Shown here in pieces: positions 1 to 8,331 of a stretch of 8,331 bases of DNA. The stretch is taken from IMG/VR virus record IMGVR_UViG_2603880147_000004; one strand, given 5' to 3'. The position numbers and the translations under genes were made by a program. This DNA is from a virus. Lineage: Duplodnaviria; Heunggongvirae; Uroviricota; Caudoviricetes. The notes under the pieces were generated by a model that worked only from the letters and a program-made list of their open reading frames with translations, did not search any database and was not told the DNA's origin. Each line of letters begins with the position of its first letter. Within the stretch, counting starts at the first letter, position 1.

Positions 1-309
1 AGTGAAACCCGGTATGGATGTGGCTTCGGCCCCTTCCGTAAGAAAGTGCGCTTTGGTGATGGCTATTCCCAGCGAGCGCCTGCCGGGCTGAATGCCGACC
101 TGAAAACGTACAGCGTGACGCTTTCTGTTCCCCGTTGGGAGGCCACGGCGCTGGAGTCGTTTCTGGCTGAGCACGGGGGCTGGAAAGCCTTTCTGTGGAC
201 GCCGCCTTATGAGTGGCGGCAGATAAAGGTGACCTGCGCAAAATGGTCGTCGCGGGTCAGTATGCTGCGTGTTGAGTTCAGCGCAGAGTTTGAACAGGTG
301 GTGAACTGA
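1..309 (+). CDS. M: Tail tip protein M, 3' portion (5' end lies upstream of the window); reading frame appears to shift at an A-run near 40-45
   Basis: Frame 1 from 46 to stop TGA 307-309 translates to VRFGDGYSQRAPAGLNADLKTYSVTLSVPRWEATALESFLAEHGGWKAFLWTPPYEWRQIKVTCAKWSSRVSMLRVEFSAEFEQVVN, matching my recollection of the lambda gpM C-terminus. Bases 2-45 match gpM only in frame 2 (VKPGMDVASAPSVRK). Stop overlaps the L start (TGATG). Confidence 0.8.
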   Translation, partial: SETRYGCGFGPFRKKVRFGDGYSQRAPAGLNADLKTYSVTLSVPRWEATALESFLAEHGGWKAFLWTPPYEWRQIKVTCAKWSSRVSMLRVEFSAEFEQVVN

Positions 310-1007
310 TGCAGGATATCCGGCAGGAAACACTGAATGAATGCACCCGTGCGGAGCAGTCGGCCAGCGTGGTGCTCTGGGAAATCGATCTGACAGAGGT
401 CGGTGGAGAACGTTATTTTTTCTGTAATGAGCAGAACGAAAAAGGTGAGCCGGTCACCTGGCAGGGGCGACAGTATCAGCCGTATCCCATTCAGGGGAGT
501 GGTTTTGAACTGAATGGCAAAGGCACCAGTACGCGCCCCACGCTGACGGTTTCTAACCTGTACGGTATGGTCACCGGGATGGCGGAAGATCTGCAGAGTC
601 TGGTCGGCGGAACGGTGGTCCGGCGTAAGGTTTACGCCCGTTTTCTGGATGCGGTGAACTTCGTCAACGGAAACAGCGAAGCCGATCCGGAGCAGGAGGT
701 GATCAGCCGCTGGCGCATCGAGCAGTGCAGCGAACTGAGCGCGGTCAGTGTCTCTTTTGTACTGTCCACACCGACTGAAACGGATGGCTCTGTTTTTCCG
801 GGGCGTATCATGCTGGCCAACACCTGCACCTGGACCTATCGCGGCGATGAGTGCGGTTATAGCGGTCCGGCGGTCGCGGATGAATATGACCAGCCGACGT
901 CCGATATCACGAAGGATAAATGCAGCAAATGCCTGAGCGGCTGTAAGTTTCGCAATAACGTCGGCAACTTTGGCGGCTTCCTTTCCATTAACAAACTTTC
1001 GCAGTAA
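309..1007 (+). CDS. L: Tail tip assembly protein L (lambda gpL family)
   Basis: Intact 232-aa ORF, the same length as lambda gpL. ATG at 309 overlaps the M stop; SD-like AGGTGG at 296-301. Protein MQDIRQETLNECTRAEQSASVVLWEIDL...CSKCLSGCKFRNNVGNFGGFLSINKLSQ with a C-terminal cysteine cluster, consistent with the Fe-S cluster reported for gpL. Confidence 0.93.
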   Translation: MQDIRQETLNECTRAEQSASVVLWEIDLTEVGGERYFFCNEQNEKGEPVTWQGRQYQPYPIQGSGFELNGKGTSTRPTLTVSNLYGMVTGMAEDLQSLVGGTVVRRKVYARFLDAVNFVNGNSEADPEQEVISRWRIEQCSELSAVSVSFVLSTPTETDGSVFPGRIMLANTCTWTYRGDECGYSGPAVADEYDQPTSDITKDKCSKCLSGCKFRNNVGNFGGFLSINKLSQ

Positions 1008-1011
1008 TCCC

Positions 1012-1755
1012 ATGACACAGACAGAATCAGCGATTCTGGCGCACGCCCGGCGATGTGCGCCAGCGGAGTCGTGCGGCTTCGTGGTGAGAGCGCCGGAGGG
1101 GGAAAGATATTTTCCCTGCGTGAATATCTCCGGTGAGCCGGAGGCGTATTTCCGTATGTCGCCGGAAGACTGGCTGCAGGCAGAAATGCAGGGTGAGATT
1201 GTGGCGCTGGTCCACAGCCACCCCGGTGGTCTGCCCTGGCTGAGTGAGGCCGACAGGCGGCTGCAGGTGCAGAGTGATTTGCCGTGGTGGCTGGTCTGCC
1301 GGGGAGTGATTCATAAGTTCCGCTGTGTGCCGCATCTCACCGGGCGGCGTTTTGAGCACGGGGTGACAGACTGTTATACGCTGTTCCGCGATGCCTATCA
1401 TCTGGCGGGGATTGAGATGCCGGATTTTCATCGCGGGGATGACTGGTGGCGTCACGGTCAGAATCTCTATCTGGATAATCTGGAGGCCACAGGGCTGTAT
1501 CAGGTGCCGTTGTCAGCGGCACAGCCGGGCGATGTTCTGCTGTGCTGTTTTGGTTCATCGGTGCCGAATCACGCCGCCATTTACTGCGGCGACGGCGAGC
1601 TGCTGCACCATATTCCTGAACAACTGAGCAAACGAGAGAGGTATACCGACAAATGGCAGCGACGCACACACTCCCTCTGGCGTCACCAGGCATGGCACGC
1701 ATCTGCCTTTACGGGGATTTACAACGATTTGGCCGCCGCATCGACCTGCGTGTGA
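1012..1755 (+). CDS. K: Tail tip assembly protein K (lambda gpK family), two-domain JAMM/MPN + NlpC/P60
   Basis: Intact ORF. ATG at 1012 lies 4 nt after the L stop (MTQTESAILAHARRCAPAESCGFVV...). JAMM-type motif HSHPGGLPWLSEAD (HxH-x7-S-x2-D) with an upstream Glu (PAESCGF). NlpC/P60-like Cys (GVTDCYTLF) and His (NHAAIYCGDGELLHH) follow. Start is uncertain: the track offers TTG 970 inside L, and the classical lambda annotation uses the internal ATG at 1156. Confidence 0.88.
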   Translation: MTQTESAILAHARRCAPAESCGFVVRAPEGERYFPCVNISGEPEAYFRMSPEDWLQAEMQGEIVALVHSHPGGLPWLSEADRRLQVQSDLPWWLVCRGVIHKFRCVPHLTGRRFEHGVTDCYTLFRDAYHLAGIEMPDFHRGDDWWRHGQNLYLDNLEATGLYQVPLSAAQPGDVLLCCFGSSVPNHAAIYCGDGELLHHIPEQLSKRERYTDKWQRRTHSLWRHQAWHASAFTGIYNDLAAASTCV

Positions 1756-2324
1756 AAACGGGGGCCGAAGCCATCCGCGCACTGGCCACACAGCTCCCGG
1801 CGTTTCGTCAGAAACTGAGCGACGGCTGGTATCAGGTACGGATTGCCGGGCGGGACGTCAGCACGTCCGGGTTAACGGCGTAGTTACATGAGACTCTGCC
1901 TGACGGCGCTGTGATTCATATTGTTCCCAGAGTCGCCGGGGCCAAGTCAGGGGGCGTATTCCAGATTGTTCTGGGGGCTGCCGCCATTGCCGGATCATTC
2001 TTTACTGCCGGAGCCACTCTTGCAGCATGGGGGGCAGCCATTGGGGCCGGTGGTATGACCGGTATCCTGTTTTCTCTCGGTGCCAGTATGGTACTTGGTG
2101 GTGTGGCGCAGATGCTGGCACCGAAAGCCAGGACGCCCACGGCAGCAAGTACAGATAACGGCAAACAGAACACCTATTTCTCCTCACTGGATAACATGGT
2201 TGCCCAGGGCAATGTTCTGCCCGTTCTGTACGGTGAAATGCGCGTGGGGTCGCGGGTGGTCTCTCAGGAGATCAGCACGGCAGACGAAGGGGATGGTGGT
2301 CAGGTTGTGGTGATTGGTCGCTGA
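1653..2324 (+). pseudogene. I: Tail tip assembly protein I (lambda gpI family), interrupted by an in-frame TAG at 1881-1883
   Basis: ATG at 1653 overlaps the K 3' end by 103 nt in another frame, as in lambda. The frame is open for 76 codons (MAATHTLPLASPGMARICLYGDLQRFGRRIDLRVKTGAEAIRALATQLPAFRQKLSDGWYQVRIAGRDVSTSGLTA), then TAG, then the same frame continues with no further stop to TGA 2322-2324 (LHETLPDGAVIHIVPRVAGAKSGGVFQIVLGAAAIAGSFF...GGQVVVIGR). Total length 672 bp equals a 223-aa gpI plus stop. In lambda the position is Gln (CAG) as I recall. Confidence 0.85.
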
Positions 2325-2342
2325 TGAAAAACATTTTATGTG

Positions 2343-2370
2343 AAACCGCCTCCGGGCGGTTTTATCGTTT
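2343..2370 (+). terminator. GC-rich hairpin followed by a T-rich tract in the I-J intergenic spacer (terminator-like or RNA processing/stability element)
   Basis: AAACCGCC (2343-2350), loop TCCG, GGCGGTTT (2355-2362), then TTTTATCGTTT. Sits between the I stop (2324) and the J start (2385). Confidence 0.4.
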
Positions 2371-2384
2371 ATGGAGCATGACGA

Positions 2385-5300
2385 ATGGGTAAAGGCAGCA
2401 GTAAGGGGCATACCCCGCGCGAAGCGAAGGACAACCTGAAATCACCCAGATGCTGAGCGTGATAGACGCCATCAGCGAAGGGCCGATTGAAGGTCCGGTG
2501 GACGGATTAAAAAGCGTGCTGCTGAACAGTACGCCGGTGCTGGACAGTGAGGGGAATACCAATATCTCCGGCGTCACGGTGGTGTTCCGGGCAGGTGAGC
2601 AGGAGCAGACACCGCCGGAGGGATTTGAATCCTCCGGCTCCGAGACGGTGCTGGGTACGGAAGTGAAATACGACACGCCGATTACCCGGACCATCACGTC
2701 GGCAAACATCGACCGTCTGCGCTTTACCTTCGGTGTGCAGGCACTGGTGGAAACCACCTCAAAGGGGGACCGGAATCCGTCGGAAGTCCGCCTGCTGGTT
2801 CAGATACAGCGTAACGGTGGCTGGGTGACGGAAAAAGACATCACCATTAAAGGCAAAACCACCTCACAGTATCTGGCATCGGTGGTGGTGGATAACCTGC
2901 CGCCGCGCCCGTTCAATATCCGGATGCGCAGGATGACGCCGGACAGCACCACAGACCAGCTGCAGAACAAAACGCTCTGGTCGTCATACACCGAAATCAT
3001 CGATGTGAAACAGTGCTACCCGAACACGGCACTGGTCGGCGTACAGGTGGATTCGGAGCAGTTCGGCAGCCAGCAGGTGAGCCGTAATTATCATCTGCGC
3101 GGGCGTATTCTGCAGGTGCCGTCGAACTATAACCCGCAGACGCGGCAATACAGCGGTATCTGGGACGGAACGTTTAAACCAGCATACAGCAACAACATGG
3201 CCTGGTGTCTGTGGGATATGCTGACCCACCCACGCTACGGCATGGGGAAACGTCTTGGTGCGGCAGATGTGGACAAATGGGCGCTGTATGTCATCGGCCA
3301 GAACTGCGACCAGTCAGTGCCGGACAGCTTTGGCGGCACGGAGCCGCGCATCACCTGTAATGCGTACCTGACCACACAACGCAAGGCCTGGGATGTGCTC
3401 AGTGATTTCTGCTCGGCGATGCGCTGTATGCCGGTATGGAACGGGCAGACGCTGACGTTCGTGCAGGACCGACCGTCGGATAAGGTGTGGACCTATAACC
3501 GCAGTAATGTGGTGATGCCGGATGATGGCGCGCCGTTCCGCTACAGCTTCAGCGCCCTGAAGGACCGCCATAATGCCGTTGAGGTGAACTGGATTGACCC
3601 GAACAACGGCTGGGAGACGGCGACAGAGCTTGTTGAAGATACGCAGGCCATTGCCCGTTACGGTCGTAATGTCACGAAGATGGATGCCTTTGGCTGTACC
3701 AGTCGGGGGCAGGCACACCGCGCCGGGCTGTGGCTGATTAAAACGGAACTGCTGGAAACGCAGACCGTGGACTTCAGCGTGGGTGCTGAAGGGCTTCGCC
3801 ATGTACCGGGCGATGTCATTGAAATCTGCGATGATGACTATGCCGGTATCAGCATCGGCGGGCGCGTGCTGGCGGTGAACAGCCAGACCCGGACGCTGAC
3901 GCTCGACCGTGAAATCACGCTGCTATCCTCCGGTACTACGCTGATAAGCCTGGTTGACGGAAGTGGCAATCCGGTCAGCGTGGAGGTCCAGTCCGTCACC
4001 GACGGCGTGAAGGTAAAAGTGAGCCGTGTTCCTGACGGCGTTGCAGAATACAGCGTGTGGGGGCTGAAGTTGCCGACGTTGCGCCAGCGCCTGTTCCGCT
4101 GTGTGAGTATCCGTGAGAACGATGACGGCACGTATGCCATCACCGCCGTGCAGCATGTACCGGAAAAAGAAGCCATCGTGGATAACGGGGCGCACTTTGA
4201 CGGCGACCAGAGCGGCACGGTGAATGGCGTTACGCCGCCAGCGGTGCAGCACCTGACCGCCGAAGTCACCGCAGACAGCGGGGAGTATCAGGTACTGGCC
4301 CGCTGGGACACGCCGAAGGTGGTGAAGGGCGTGAGCTTCCTGCTCCGTCTGACCGTAACAGCGGATGACGGCAGTGAGCGGCTGGTCAGCACGGCCCGGA
4401 CGACGGAAACCACATACCGCTTCAGGCAGCTGGCGCCAGGGAACTACAGGCTGACGGTCCGGGCGGTAAATGCGTGGGGACAGCAGGGCGATCCGGCGTT
4501 GGTATCGTTCCGGATTGCCGCCCCGGCAGCGCCGTCGCGGATTGAGCTGACGTCGGGCTATTTTCAGATAACTGCCACGCCGCATCTTGCGGTTTATGAT
4601 CCGACGGTACAGTTTGAGTTCTGGTTCTCGGAAAAGCGGATTGCGGATATCAGGCAGGTTGAAACCACAGCACGCTATCTTGGCACGGCGCTGTACTGGA
4701 TAGCCGCCAGTATCAATATCAGGCCGGGCCATGATTATTATTTTTACGTTCGCAGTGTGAACACCGTTGGCAAATCGGCATTCGTGGAGGCTGTTGGTCA
4801 GCCGAGTGATGATGCATCCGGCTATCTGGATTTTTTCAAAGGCGAGATAGGGAAAACCCATCTGGCTCAGGAGCTGTGGACGCAGATTGATAACGGTCAG
4901 CTTGCGCCTGACCTGGCTGAAATCAGGACGTCCATTACGGATGTCAGCAATGAAATCACGCAGACCGTCAATAAGAAACTGGAAGACCAGAGTGCGGCAA
5001 TTCAGCAGATACAGAAGGTTCAGGTTGATACAAATAATAACCTGAACAGCATGTGGGCTGTGAAGCTGCAGCAGATGCAGGACGGACGCCTTTATATCGC
5101 GGGTATTGGTGTCGGTATTGAGAACACCCCTGACGGCATGCAGAGTCAGGTGCTGCTGGCGGCGGACAGGATTGCGATGGTTAATCCTGCGAATGGCAAC
5201 ACAAAACCGATGTTTGTTGGTCAGGGCGATCAGATATTCATGAACGACGTGTTCCTGAAACGCCTGACGGCCCCCACCATTACCAGCGGTGGAAATCCAC

Positions 5301-5863
5301 CGGCATTTTCCCTGACACCGGACGGAAAGCTGACTGCTAAAAATGCGGATATCAGTGGCAGTGTGAATGCGAACTCCGGGACGCTCAACAACGTCACGAT
5401 TAATGAGAACTGTCAGATTAAGGGGAAACTGTCAGCCAATCAGATTGAAGGCGATATTGTCAAAACAGTGGGTAAGGCTTTCCCGCGGGACTCCCGGGCA
5501 CCGGAGCGGTGGCCATCAGGGACCATTACCGTCAGGATTTATGACGATCAGCCTTTTGACAGGCAAATTGTTATTCCAGCGGTGGCATTCTGCGGCGCTA
5601 AACATGAGCGGGAGAATAACGATATTTATTCGTCATGCCGCCTGATAGTGAAGAAAAATGGTGCTGAAATTTATAACCGTACCGCGCTGGATAATACGCT
5701 GATTTACAGTGGTGTTATTGATATGCCAGCTGGTCACGGCCACATGACGCTGGAGTTTTCGGTGTCAGCATGGCTGGTAAATGACTGGTATCCCACAGCA
5801 AGTATCAGCGATTTGCTGGTTGTGGTGATGAAGAAAGCCACCGCTGGCATCAGTATCAGCTGA
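2385..5863 (+). pseudogene. J: Tip attachment / host specificity protein J (central tail fibre), with a frameshift about 20 codons from the start; the long open frame is 2450-5863
   Basis: ATG at 2385 with GGAG at 2373-2376 encodes [20 protein letters not shown], the gpJ N-terminus as I recall it, and hits TGA at 2454-2456 after about 22 codons. The 1137-codon ORF 2450-5863 is in another frame, begins [32 protein letters not shown] (lambda gpJ residues about 23 onward) and has no SD before its ATG. This implies a net 1-bp deletion near 2440-2448. The rest is gpJ-like to about 4840, then divergent. Confidence 0.88.
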
Positions 5864-5881
5864 ATTTTATAACCCATATAC

Positions 5882-5909
5882 GGGCGCCAGAAATGGCGCC
5901 TTTTTTATT
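5882..5909 (+). terminator. Rho-independent terminator downstream of J
   Basis: Perfect palindromic stem GGCGCC (5883-5888), loop AGAAAT, GGCGCC (5895-5900), then TTTTTTATT, 19 nt after the J stop. Confidence 0.75.
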
Positions 5910-5930
5910 GCAGAAAAGCGAGAGGTAATT

Positions 5931-6530
5931 ATGCGTAAAGTTTGTGCAGCCATTTTGTCCGCAGCCATCTGTCTGGCCGTATCCGGTGCGCCTGCATGGG
6001 CGTCTGAGCAGCAGGCCACACTGAGCGCAGGGTATCTTCATGCCCGTACGAACGCTCCCGGCAGCGATAATCTGAACGGGATTAACGTGAAATACCGTTA
6101 TGAGTTTACGGACACGCTGGGGCTGATTACGTCATTCAGTTATGCCAACGCTGAAGATGAGCAAAAAACGCATTACAGCGATACCCGCTGGTATGAAGAT
6201 TCCGTGCGTAACCGCTGGTTCAGCGTGATGGCGGGGCCGTCTGTGCGCGTGAATGAATGGTTCAGCGCGTATGCGATGGTGGGTGTGGCTTACAGCCGTG
6301 TGTCGACTTTCTCCGGGAATTATCTGCAGGTGACCGACAATACGGGGAAAACGCACGATGTGCTGACCGGAAGTGATGACGGTCGCCACAGCAACACGTC
6401 TCTGGCGTGGGGGGCTGGCGTGCAGTTTAACCCGACCGAATCCGTGGCCGTTGATGTCGCTTATGAAGGCTCCGGCAGCGGTGACTGGCGTACCAACAGT
6501 TTCATCGTTGGTGTCGGTTATAAATTCTGA
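5931..6530 (+). CDS. lom: Lom-like outer membrane protein (Ail/Lom/PagC/OmpX 8-strand beta-barrel family), prophage moron
   Basis: 199-aa ORF with SD GAGAGG at 5920-5925 five nt before the ATG. Signal peptide [24 protein letters not shown] then SEQQ. C-terminus [22 protein letters not shown] ends in the aromatic residue typical of OMP barrels and closely matches the lambda Lom C-terminus as I recall it. Internal [12 protein letters not shown] and SVMAGP motifs are also shared. It sits between J and stf as in lambda. Confidence 0.9.
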
Positions 6531-6556
6531 TTAGCCAGGTAACACAGTGTTATGAC

Positions 6557-6583
6557 AGCCCGCCGGTTCAGGCGGGCTTTTTT
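6557..6583 (+). terminator. Rho-independent terminator downstream of lom
   Basis: Stem AGCCCGCC (6557-6564), loop GGTTCA, GGCGGGCT (6571-6578), then TTTTTTGTGG, 27 nt after the lom stop. Confidence 0.75.
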
Positions 6584-6594
6584 GTGGGGGGAAT

Positions 6595-8331
6595 ATGGCA
6601 GTACGGATTTCAGGTGTACTGAAAGATGGCGCAGGTAAGCCGATACAAAACTGCACCATTCAGCTAAAGGCCAGGCGCAACAGCACCACGGTGGTGGTGA
6701 ACACAGTGGCCTCAGAAAACCCGGATGAAGCCGGGCGTTACACAATGGACGTCGAGTATGGTCAGTACAGCGTCAGTCTGTTGGTGGAGGGATTCCCGCC
6801 GTCACACGCCGGGATTATCACCGTATATGAGGACTCAAAGCCGGGCACACTGAATGATTTCCTCGGTGCAATGACGGAGGATGATGTCCGGCCAGAGGCA
6901 CTGCGCCGTTTTGAACTGATGGTGGAAGAGGTGGCGCGTAACGCGTCCGCAGTGGCACAGAACACGGCAGCCGCGAAGAAGTCAGCCAGCGATGCCCGCA
7001 CCTCAGCCCGGGATGCGGCGGCCTCAAAAGAGGCAGCGAAATCATCAGAAACGAACGCATCATCAAGCGCCAGTAGTGCCGCTTCCTCGGCAACGGCGGC
7101 AGGAAATTCCGCGAAGGCGGCAAAGACGTCCGAGACGAACGCCAGGTCTTCTGAAACGGCAGCGGGACAGAGTGCCTCAGCTGCGGCAGGCTCAAAAACA
7201 GCGGCTGCATCATCAGCCAGTGCCGCGTCAACAAGTGCCGGGCAGGCCTCAGCCAGTGCCACCGCTGCCGGAAAGTCGGCAGAAAGTGCTGCATCGTCTG
7301 CTTCAACAGCCACAACGAATGCTGGCGAAGCCGCTGTACAGGCCAGCGCAGCAGCGAGGTCAGCTTCCGCAGCGAAGACATCCGAAACGAACGCGAAAGC
7401 GTCGGAAACCAGCGCAGAATCCTCAAAAACGGCTGCCGCATCGTCCGCCAGTTCGGCGGCGTCATCGGCATCATCTGCGTCTGCTTCAAAAGATGAGGCG
7501 ACCAGACAGGCGTCAGCAGCGAGGGGCAGCGCCACGACGGCATCCACGAAGGCGACAGAGGCTGCTGGCAGTGCGGCAGCGGCAGCACAGAGCAAAAGTA
7601 CGGCAGAATCCGCAGCAACGCGCGCTGAGACAGCGGCAAAACGTGCAGAGGATATTGCATCCGCCGTGGCGCTTGAGGATGCGAGCACGACGAAAAAGGG
7701 GGTAGTACAGCTCAGCAGTGCGACCAACAGCACTTCCGAGTCACAGGCGGCAACGCCAAAAGCCGTTAAGGCCGCGTATGACCTGGCTAACGGGAAATAC
7801 ACCGCACAGGATGCAACGACAGGACAGAAAGGGATAGTTCAGCTCAGCAGTGCGACTAACAGCACTTCCGAGTCACAGGCGGCAACGCCAAAAGCCGTTA
7901 AGGCCGCGTATGACCTGGCTAACGGGAAATACACCGCACAGGATGCAACGACAGGACAGAAAGGGATAGTTCAGCTCAGCAGTGCGACTAACAGCACTTC
8001 CGAGTCACAGGCGGCAACGCCAAAAGCCGTTAAGGCCGCGTATGACCTGGCTAACGGGAAATACACCGCACAGGACGCTACGACAGCACAAAAAGGAATT
8101 GTCCAGCTCAGTAGTGCAACCAACAGCACATCTGAAACGCTTGCTGCGACACCGAAAGCAGTGAAAGCAGCTAATGACAATGCGAATGGTCGGGTACCTT
8201 CTGCCCGTAAGGTGAATGGTAAGGCGCTTTCAGCGGATATAACACTGACGCCGAAAGATATCGGTACGCTTAACTCAACAACAATGTCATTCAGCGGTGG
8301 TGCTGGTTGGTTCAAATTAGCAACGGTAACC
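6595..8331 (+). CDS. stf: Side tail fibre protein Stf, 5' partial (open to the window end, 579 codons, no stop)
   Basis: I translated frame 1 by hand from ATG 6595 to 8331 and found no stop. The ORF track omits it, presumably because it has no stop in the window. N-terminus MAVRISGVLKDGAGKPIQNCTIQLKARRNSTTVVVNTVASENPDEAGRYTMDVEYGQYSVSLLVEGFPPSHAGIITVYEDSKPGTLNDFL resembles lambda Stf as I recall it. An Ala/Ser/Thr-rich low-complexity region follows, then repeated KGIVQLSSATNSTSE..AATPKAVK tail-fibre motifs. G-rich SD-like run at 6585-6590. Confidence 0.9.
   Translation, partial: MAVRISGVLKDGAGKPIQNCTIQLKARRNSTTVVVNTVASENPDEAGRYTMDVEYGQYSVSLLVEGFPPSHAGIITVYEDSKPGTLNDFLGAMTEDDVRPEALRRFELMVEEVARNASAVAQNTAAAKKSASDARTSARDAAASKEAAKSSETNASSSASSAASSATAAGNSAKAAKTSETNARSSETAAGQSASAAAGSKTAAASSASAASTSAGQASASATAAGKSAESAASSASTATTNAGEAAVQASAAARSASAAKTSETNAKASETSAESSKTAAASSASSAASSASSASASKDEATRQASAARGSATTASTKATEAAGSAAAAAQSKSTAESAATRAETAAKRAEDIASAVALEDASTTKKGVVQLSSATNSTSESQAATPKAVKAAYDLANGKYTAQDATTGQKGIVQLSSATNSTSESQAATPKAVKAAYDLANGKYTAQDATTGQKGIVQLSSATNSTSESQAATPKAVKAAYDLANGKYTAQDATTAQKGIVQLSSATNSTSETLAATPKAVKAANDNANGRVPSARKVNGKALSADITLTPKDIGTLNSTTMSFSGGAGWFKLATVT
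7699..8193 (+). repeat. In-frame tandem repeat inside stf: three 132-bp (44-codon) units plus a degenerate partial fourth
   Basis: Units 7699-7830, 7831-7962 and 7963-8094 are almost identical at the nucleotide level. Units 2 and 3 differ only in their last ~24 nt; unit 1 differs at a few positions near its 5' end. Each encodes G(V/I)VQLSSATNSTSESQAATPKAVKAAYDLANGKYTAQDATT(G/A)QK. A diverged copy follows at 8095 to about 8193 (GIVQLSSATNSTSETLAATPKAVKAANDNANGR). Confidence 0.9.

Follow-up and report, generated by a model that had tools for sequence, protein, structure and literature searches.

The closest described counterpart of the gene considered here is M of phage lambda (J02459 13100..13429), which encodes the tail tip protein gpM of 109 aa. 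We compared it with a stretch of 8331 nt, referred to here as the window, which is the whole contig JNRO01000056.1 of the Escherichia coli 3-020-07_S1_C1 draft genome (GCA_000704685.1). The window begins 20 nt inside M and runs through L, K, I, J and lom to the start of the side tail fibre gene. The start of M lies off the contig, and window base 1 corresponds to lambda position 13120. Over 330 nt of the window the nucleotide identity to lambda M is 96.1%, and the gene order M-L-K-I-J-lom-stf, including the ATGA overlap of M with L, is that of lambda. Unlike in lambda, however, a G is missing after codon 22 and gpM is not encoded in one frame; in addition, the repaired protein of the window differs from lambda gpM by six amino-acid substitutions.

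A second comparison is offered by the prophage M gene of the complete genome E203449 from Mali (NZ_CM128603.1, ACU5TS_RS13765), which PGAP annotates as "frameshifted". It is likewise a lambda-type M that has lost one base within its first fifth, and it contains the same 87-aa downstream ORF starting from the same GTG as in the window. It differs in that a C was lost from GGCCCCTTCC (CCCC to CCC), 15 nt upstream of the site in the window and on the allele GTCAGGAAAGTG. Moreover, this frameshift is present in at least three independent assemblies, namely two IGS drafts and E203449 (positions 5936-6264 in L023, 2204-2532 in L024 and 1491-1819 in L042), while that of the window is found in one draft contig only. 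An 87-aa, 5'-truncated M was also seen in contig BDRR01000061.1 (L022, 4331-6264), where M-L-K' is directly followed by this second M and then by L-K-I-J. An N is located at the junction, and the arrangement could reflect a tandem duplication within the tail module or a join made during scaffolding.

The third system is the programmed -1 frameshift site G/GT of lambda. The sequence A-AAG is shift-prone in E. coli, as in dnaX and at the lambda G-T site G GGA AAG. Like the G/GT site, the site in the window ends in A-AAG, and a -1 shift there restores the downstream frame. In contrast to G/GT, it lacks the heptamer X XXY YYZ, is not conserved and is not followed by a stimulatory structure, and while the two-frame arrangement of G/GT is kept in all relatives, that of the window is unique to one contig.

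On the plus strand, bases 2..46 of the window translate in frame 2 as VKPGMDVASAPSVRK, which corresponds to gpM residues 8-22; this 5' part of M is identical to that of a sister-colony contig (L009). From base 46 on, frame 1 (46..309, plus strand) encodes VRFGDGYSQ...EQVVN, the remaining gpM (residues 23-109), and its stop codon TGA at 307-309 overlaps the ATG of L. When frame 2 is continued past the switch, it meets a premature TGA at 89..91 (plus strand). A sequence-only reading of the window had assigned the two pieces of gpM to these frames and had placed the end of frame 2 at this TGA, and both assignments agree with the translations and, for the two pieces, with the lambda alignment. The deposited sequence does contain the frame switch, and the 3' part of M was annotated in it as KDZ18279.1 (87 aa, "phage minor tail family protein"). 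A real deletion would leave this M with a peptide of 36 aa as its product, MKTFRWK followed by VKPGMDVASAPSVRK and CALVMAIPSERLPG, with MKTFRWK taken from the sister-colony contig.

The alignment of positions 1-309 with lambda M, which the sequence-only reading had proposed as a check, confirmed a single one-base gap, and alignment of the window with J02459 and two other, closer phages gave exactly one gap in the window. The identity and the position of the missing base have to be corrected, though. The A-run in AAGAAAG, which according to the same reading is one A longer in lambda, is the same in the window, in lambda and in all relatives, and in lambda and the relatives it is followed by GTG. 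The A-run is unchanged, and the missing base is one G of a GG pair: at 40-51 the window has AAGAAAGTGCGC where the relatives have AAGAAAGGTGCGC, so that the lone G at 46 corresponds to GG. Furthermore, the site had been placed near the 3' end of M, but it is located at codon 23 of 109 and thus in the first fifth of the gene, with 264 nt (80% of M) lying 3' of the deletion. The suggestion had been that either M is frameshifted or a homopolymer sequencing error is present. The one-base deletion and the premature TGA in it are correct, while loss of an A as their cause is not. A homopolymer error also does not fit the data, which are from Illumina sequencing, and within the first 2.5 kb of the window, none of the runs of 5-6 identical bases is disturbed.

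Once the G is put back, the protein can be aligned with residues 8-109 of lambda gpM (PDB 8iyk_M) with no gap at all (E = 1.2e-62). Its score against the profile PF05939 (Phage_min_tail; gathering cut-off 39) is 120.6 bits, compared to 107.5 bits for the 87-aa ORF. We also considered the frame-1 translation with the N-terminus SETRYGCGFGPFRKK. Homologues matching this N-terminus would have spoken against a frame switch, but it found no support from any homologue; the profile match of this translation begins only at residue 12, and its score is 110.9 bits, below that of the repaired protein. The genomic position is also that of a lambda-type M. The genes L, K, I and J follow within the window, and the tape-measure gene H, which is off the contig, lies ahead of M in the sister contig L009 as well as in all relatives. 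A single uninterrupted frame of approximately 109 codons is not present in the deposited sequence and is obtained only when one G is restored.

The strain originates from a collection of stool swabs of Tanzanian children, from each of which up to three colonies were sequenced with Illumina HiSeq (100-bp reads) and assembled with MaSuRCA 2.3.2 (PMC6222053). The colonies C1, C2 and C3 of the swab in question (biosamples SRS568135 for C1, SRS568201 and SRS568390 for C2 and C3) all belong to phylogroup A, ST1139 and O8:H9, and C1, from which the window is derived, has the most fragmented assembly (177 contigs, 5.09 Mb, compared to 121 contigs for C2 and 155 for C3; PMC6222053). Two more contigs of the C1 assembly, JNRO59 and JNRO76, carry a K-I-J module, and thus the genome holds several (at least three) near-identical lambda-like tail modules. 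In the three sister assemblies, the allelic segments of these modules are joined differently. The contig JNRP01000057 of sister colony C2 harbors an intact M of 109 aa and equals window 1-388 except for the G. The similarity extends to position 1005, with two substitutions (389 and 680) plus the M deletion in window 1-1005, while window 1006-3388 represents a different allele. From 3500 to 7750, the window once more matches the C2 and C3 contigs exactly over the part that they cover (to approximately 5180), and it is also identical there to a prophage of strain 1297KP. The window starts 36 nt before the polymorphic site 37, and JNRO59 and JNRO76 start 36 nt before the SNP at 1255. An estimate of the assembler k-mer size from these contig ends was not used, since it is ambiguous due to position 1218 being polymorphic as well.

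The one-base deletion is an indel relative to intact homologues, and it is private to one assembly, close to a contig end and located in a multi-copy region. All 85 phage matches listed span 331 nt, in comparison to 330 nt in the window, and the same is true for the top-listed matches among 3553 E. coli genomes. In every fetched relative carrying GG that was compared over the deletion site, the gap is on the side of the window. A 66-nt probe centred on the deletion was compared with 5426 complete E. coli genomes, and none of the 3212 matching M sites in them was an exact match. Exact scans with a 31-mer and a 22-mer spanning the junction showed that it is absent from the GTDB species representatives, IMG/VR and the JGI metagenomes. 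The versions of the M site are told apart by the k-mers CCGTAAGAAAGTGCGCTTTGG and CCGTAAGAAAGGTGCGCTTTGG. Other assemblies of the strain or its lineage do not reproduce the lesion: the C2 contig has GG, and the complete genomes provided no exact match. The distance between the deletion and the contig end is 46 nt, which is less than one read length.

The 36-aa truncated product was found once more, in contig JBQMUV010000009.1 (L021), where it is encoded by a different allele (GTCAGAAAGTG). This 279-kb contig looks like an unpolished long-read assembly, and one-base deletions in C4, G4 and G5 runs break every one of its prophage genes. In view of the different allele and the abundance of homopolymer deletions, we set it aside as independent support for the deletion in the window and treated its 36-aa product as a coincidence caused by sequencing error.

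Several other sites in the window differ from the relatives. Directly downstream of M, L (309..1007, plus strand) is intact and encodes a protein of 232 aa with a PF05100 domain; its allele is shared with L032-L041. In the spacer between the L stop and the K start (1005-1011), the window has TAATCCCATG and its closest relatives have TAAATCCCATG, which amounts to a change from TAAA to TAA at 1006. We considered this as a third private lesion and rejected it, because 688 complete-genome records match it exactly and L032-L041 have the same allele; it is a widespread natural variant. K (1012..1755, plus strand) is also intact (247 aa), and its allele was seen nowhere else. Between 1255 and 1395 it has eight or nine substitutions that are present in no fetched relative, with 97.8% identity to the best complete-genome match. 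Since eight of the nine private substitutions are synonymous, they are not noise and point to a natural allele that was so far not sampled elsewhere. By exact protein look-up, the 247-aa K protein of the window was found nowhere else in a collection of 15 billion proteins, and the J fragment was likewise unique to this contig. The fragments of I are common to all copies and do not discriminate between them.

The tail assembly gene I (1752..2324, plus strand) contains an in-frame TAG at 1881-1883, where ATCC 8739 has CAG. This stop codon is common to the sister-colony contigs, to strain 1297KP, in which PGAP reports an "internal stop", and to other genomes, and therefore it is a real, inherited lesion. 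A different picture emerged for the host-specificity gene J (2385..5863, plus strand), which is split by a second private one-base deletion. Here a lone T is gone, changing ATCATCCC to ATCACCC at 2441-2447 (codon 20). The reading frame is shifted after 19-20 codons, and the first 23 codons (ORF 2385-2456) end at the TGA 2454-2456; the remainder (ORF 2450-5863) was deposited as truncated J, KDZ18284.1. The T-containing natural allele of J is widespread and present, for example, in Nissle 1917 and WAT. The deletion version of the window had no exact match among 6549 matching sites, the versions being distinguished by the k-mers AAATCACCCAGATG and AAATCATCCCAGATG.

At the other end of the window, the side tail fibre gene contains a 132-bp tandem repeat at 7699-8129 (3.3 copies, 95% identity), with one copy more than in 1297KP and other relatives. 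An antisense ORF on the minus strand (6762-7802) lies inside the tail fibre gene. It comprises 346 aa (277 aa in the database), does not match any Pfam profile and is probably a spurious call.

These data suggest that the missing G is probably an artefact of the assembly consensus in a multi-copy prophage region. For its consensus, MaSuRCA relies on the Celera assembler, which works on gapped pile-ups of "super-reads", and super-reads derived from near-identical prophage copies could be piled together. Where two alleles differ by clustered substitutions, an alignment with one gap in each allele may be just as good, and if both gap columns were dropped, the consensus would become one base short. 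The real gene would then be an intact, ordinary lambda-type M of 109 aa in the order H-M-L-K-I-J.

We determined for which positions of the window allele at least one optimal alignment with another allele, under unit costs, places a gap opposite. For J, the comparison was made with the JNRO59 allele of the K-J patch from the same assembly. Only 4 of 2382 positions qualified, and the missing T was among them; the probability that it coincides with such a gap-ambiguous position by chance is approximately 0.002. In addition, the J sequence of the window is what results when both gap columns of the alternative alignment are dropped. For M, the comparison with the natural allele GTCAGGAAAGTG gave only positions 46-47, i.e. 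the GG, out of 331. Such a placement of both private deletions is not expected from random mutation, while an overlap consensus of co-resident alleles does predict it, and we infer that both deletions were probably made at the consensus step of the assembler. The misalignment model for M needs an allele of the GTCAGGAAAGTG type in the same genome, and such an allele is presumably present there; it is natural elsewhere but only postulated for this genome, which speaks against the model at M. A source of the deletions in vivo was also considered, namely heteroduplex repair between the prophage copies. Strand-directed heteroduplex repair converts whole tracts to one allele, and therefore it is a poor alternative.

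Alternatively, the deletion could be real, and M would then be a frameshifted pseudogene in the decaying tail module of one lambda-like prophage. A ribosome starting at M would terminate after 36 aa, so no functional gpM would be expected from this copy. We regard this as possible but less likely, although several observations are in line with it. The nonsense codon in I, which the sister colonies, 1297KP and other genomes have inherited too, implies that the module was probably already defective, and with a stop already in I, M may be under relaxed selection. Frameshifts of M do occur naturally, as exemplified by the CCCC to CCC deletion, and loss of one base in a short run is a frequent spontaneous mutation. 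Illumina assemblies, including those made with MaSuRCA, usually have few indels and seldom invent them, and four other fetched contigs of the sister assemblies (approximately 25 kb) are without frameshifts of their own. Finally, the substitutions at 389 and 680, together with the unique K allele and the naturally diverged patch in K and 5' J, mark the window as a distinct prophage copy. Thus, the sister contig with the intact M may represent a paralogue and not the same locus.

On the other hand, a genuine mutation is difficult to reconcile with the occurrence of the deletion in just one of thousands of M copies, that of a draft contig, with the contig end only 46 nt away, and with the location of both private deletions at the rare equal-cost gap positions, which would be unexpected for random mutations. 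The mutation spectra of E. coli show roughly one deletion per ten substitutions. The M-L stretch of the window, when compared to the sister contig, has only two substitutions beside one deletion, far from the expected ratio. Taken together, the evidence leans to an assembly-consensus error.

It is also conceivable that the single G is genuine and that the gene is nevertheless leaky. At a site resembling programmed ones, tRNA-Lys could re-pair on AAA and slip by -1 at the AAG 44-46, and such low-level slippage on A-AAG would yield wild-type gpM. Formally, the reading works: frame 2 is GTA AGA AAG, and after a -1 shift it continues with GTG CGC, giving the wild-type ...SVRK-VRFG..., and the A-AAG motif itself is shift-prone. 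However, A AGA AAG does not conform to the heptamer pattern X XXY YYZ, and the Arg tRNA in the P-site cannot re-pair. The downstream 74 nt do not fold better than shuffled sequences (minimum free energy of -20 kcal/mol against an average of -21.0 for the shuffles, z = 0.37; a fold at least as good was obtained for 121 of 200 shuffles). Furthermore, M is in a single frame in every intact homologue, with one ORF in the 85 phage matches and in the listed complete E. coli genomes, and thus there is nothing conserved to mark a programmed site. We therefore consider slippage very improbable. Re-initiation at the GTG at position 46 as a designed feature was rejected, since a Shine-Dalgarno-like sequence at usable spacing is not present.

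If slippage did occur, a "dead" tail gene would be partly functional, and a frameshift mutation would be rescued at a non-canonical slippage site. If the deletion is real without such a rescue, it adds one more decaying tail gene beside the stopped I, which is commonplace in E. coli. Whether M is an artefact or an ordinary dead prophage gene, nothing biologically new is implied. If it is an artefact, the finding calls for caution in annotation: KDZ18279.1 (87 aa) and KDZ18284.1 (truncated J) are then probably not real products, and in short draft contigs from multi-copy prophages, consensus indels can sit exactly where co-resident alleles differ by clustered substitutions.
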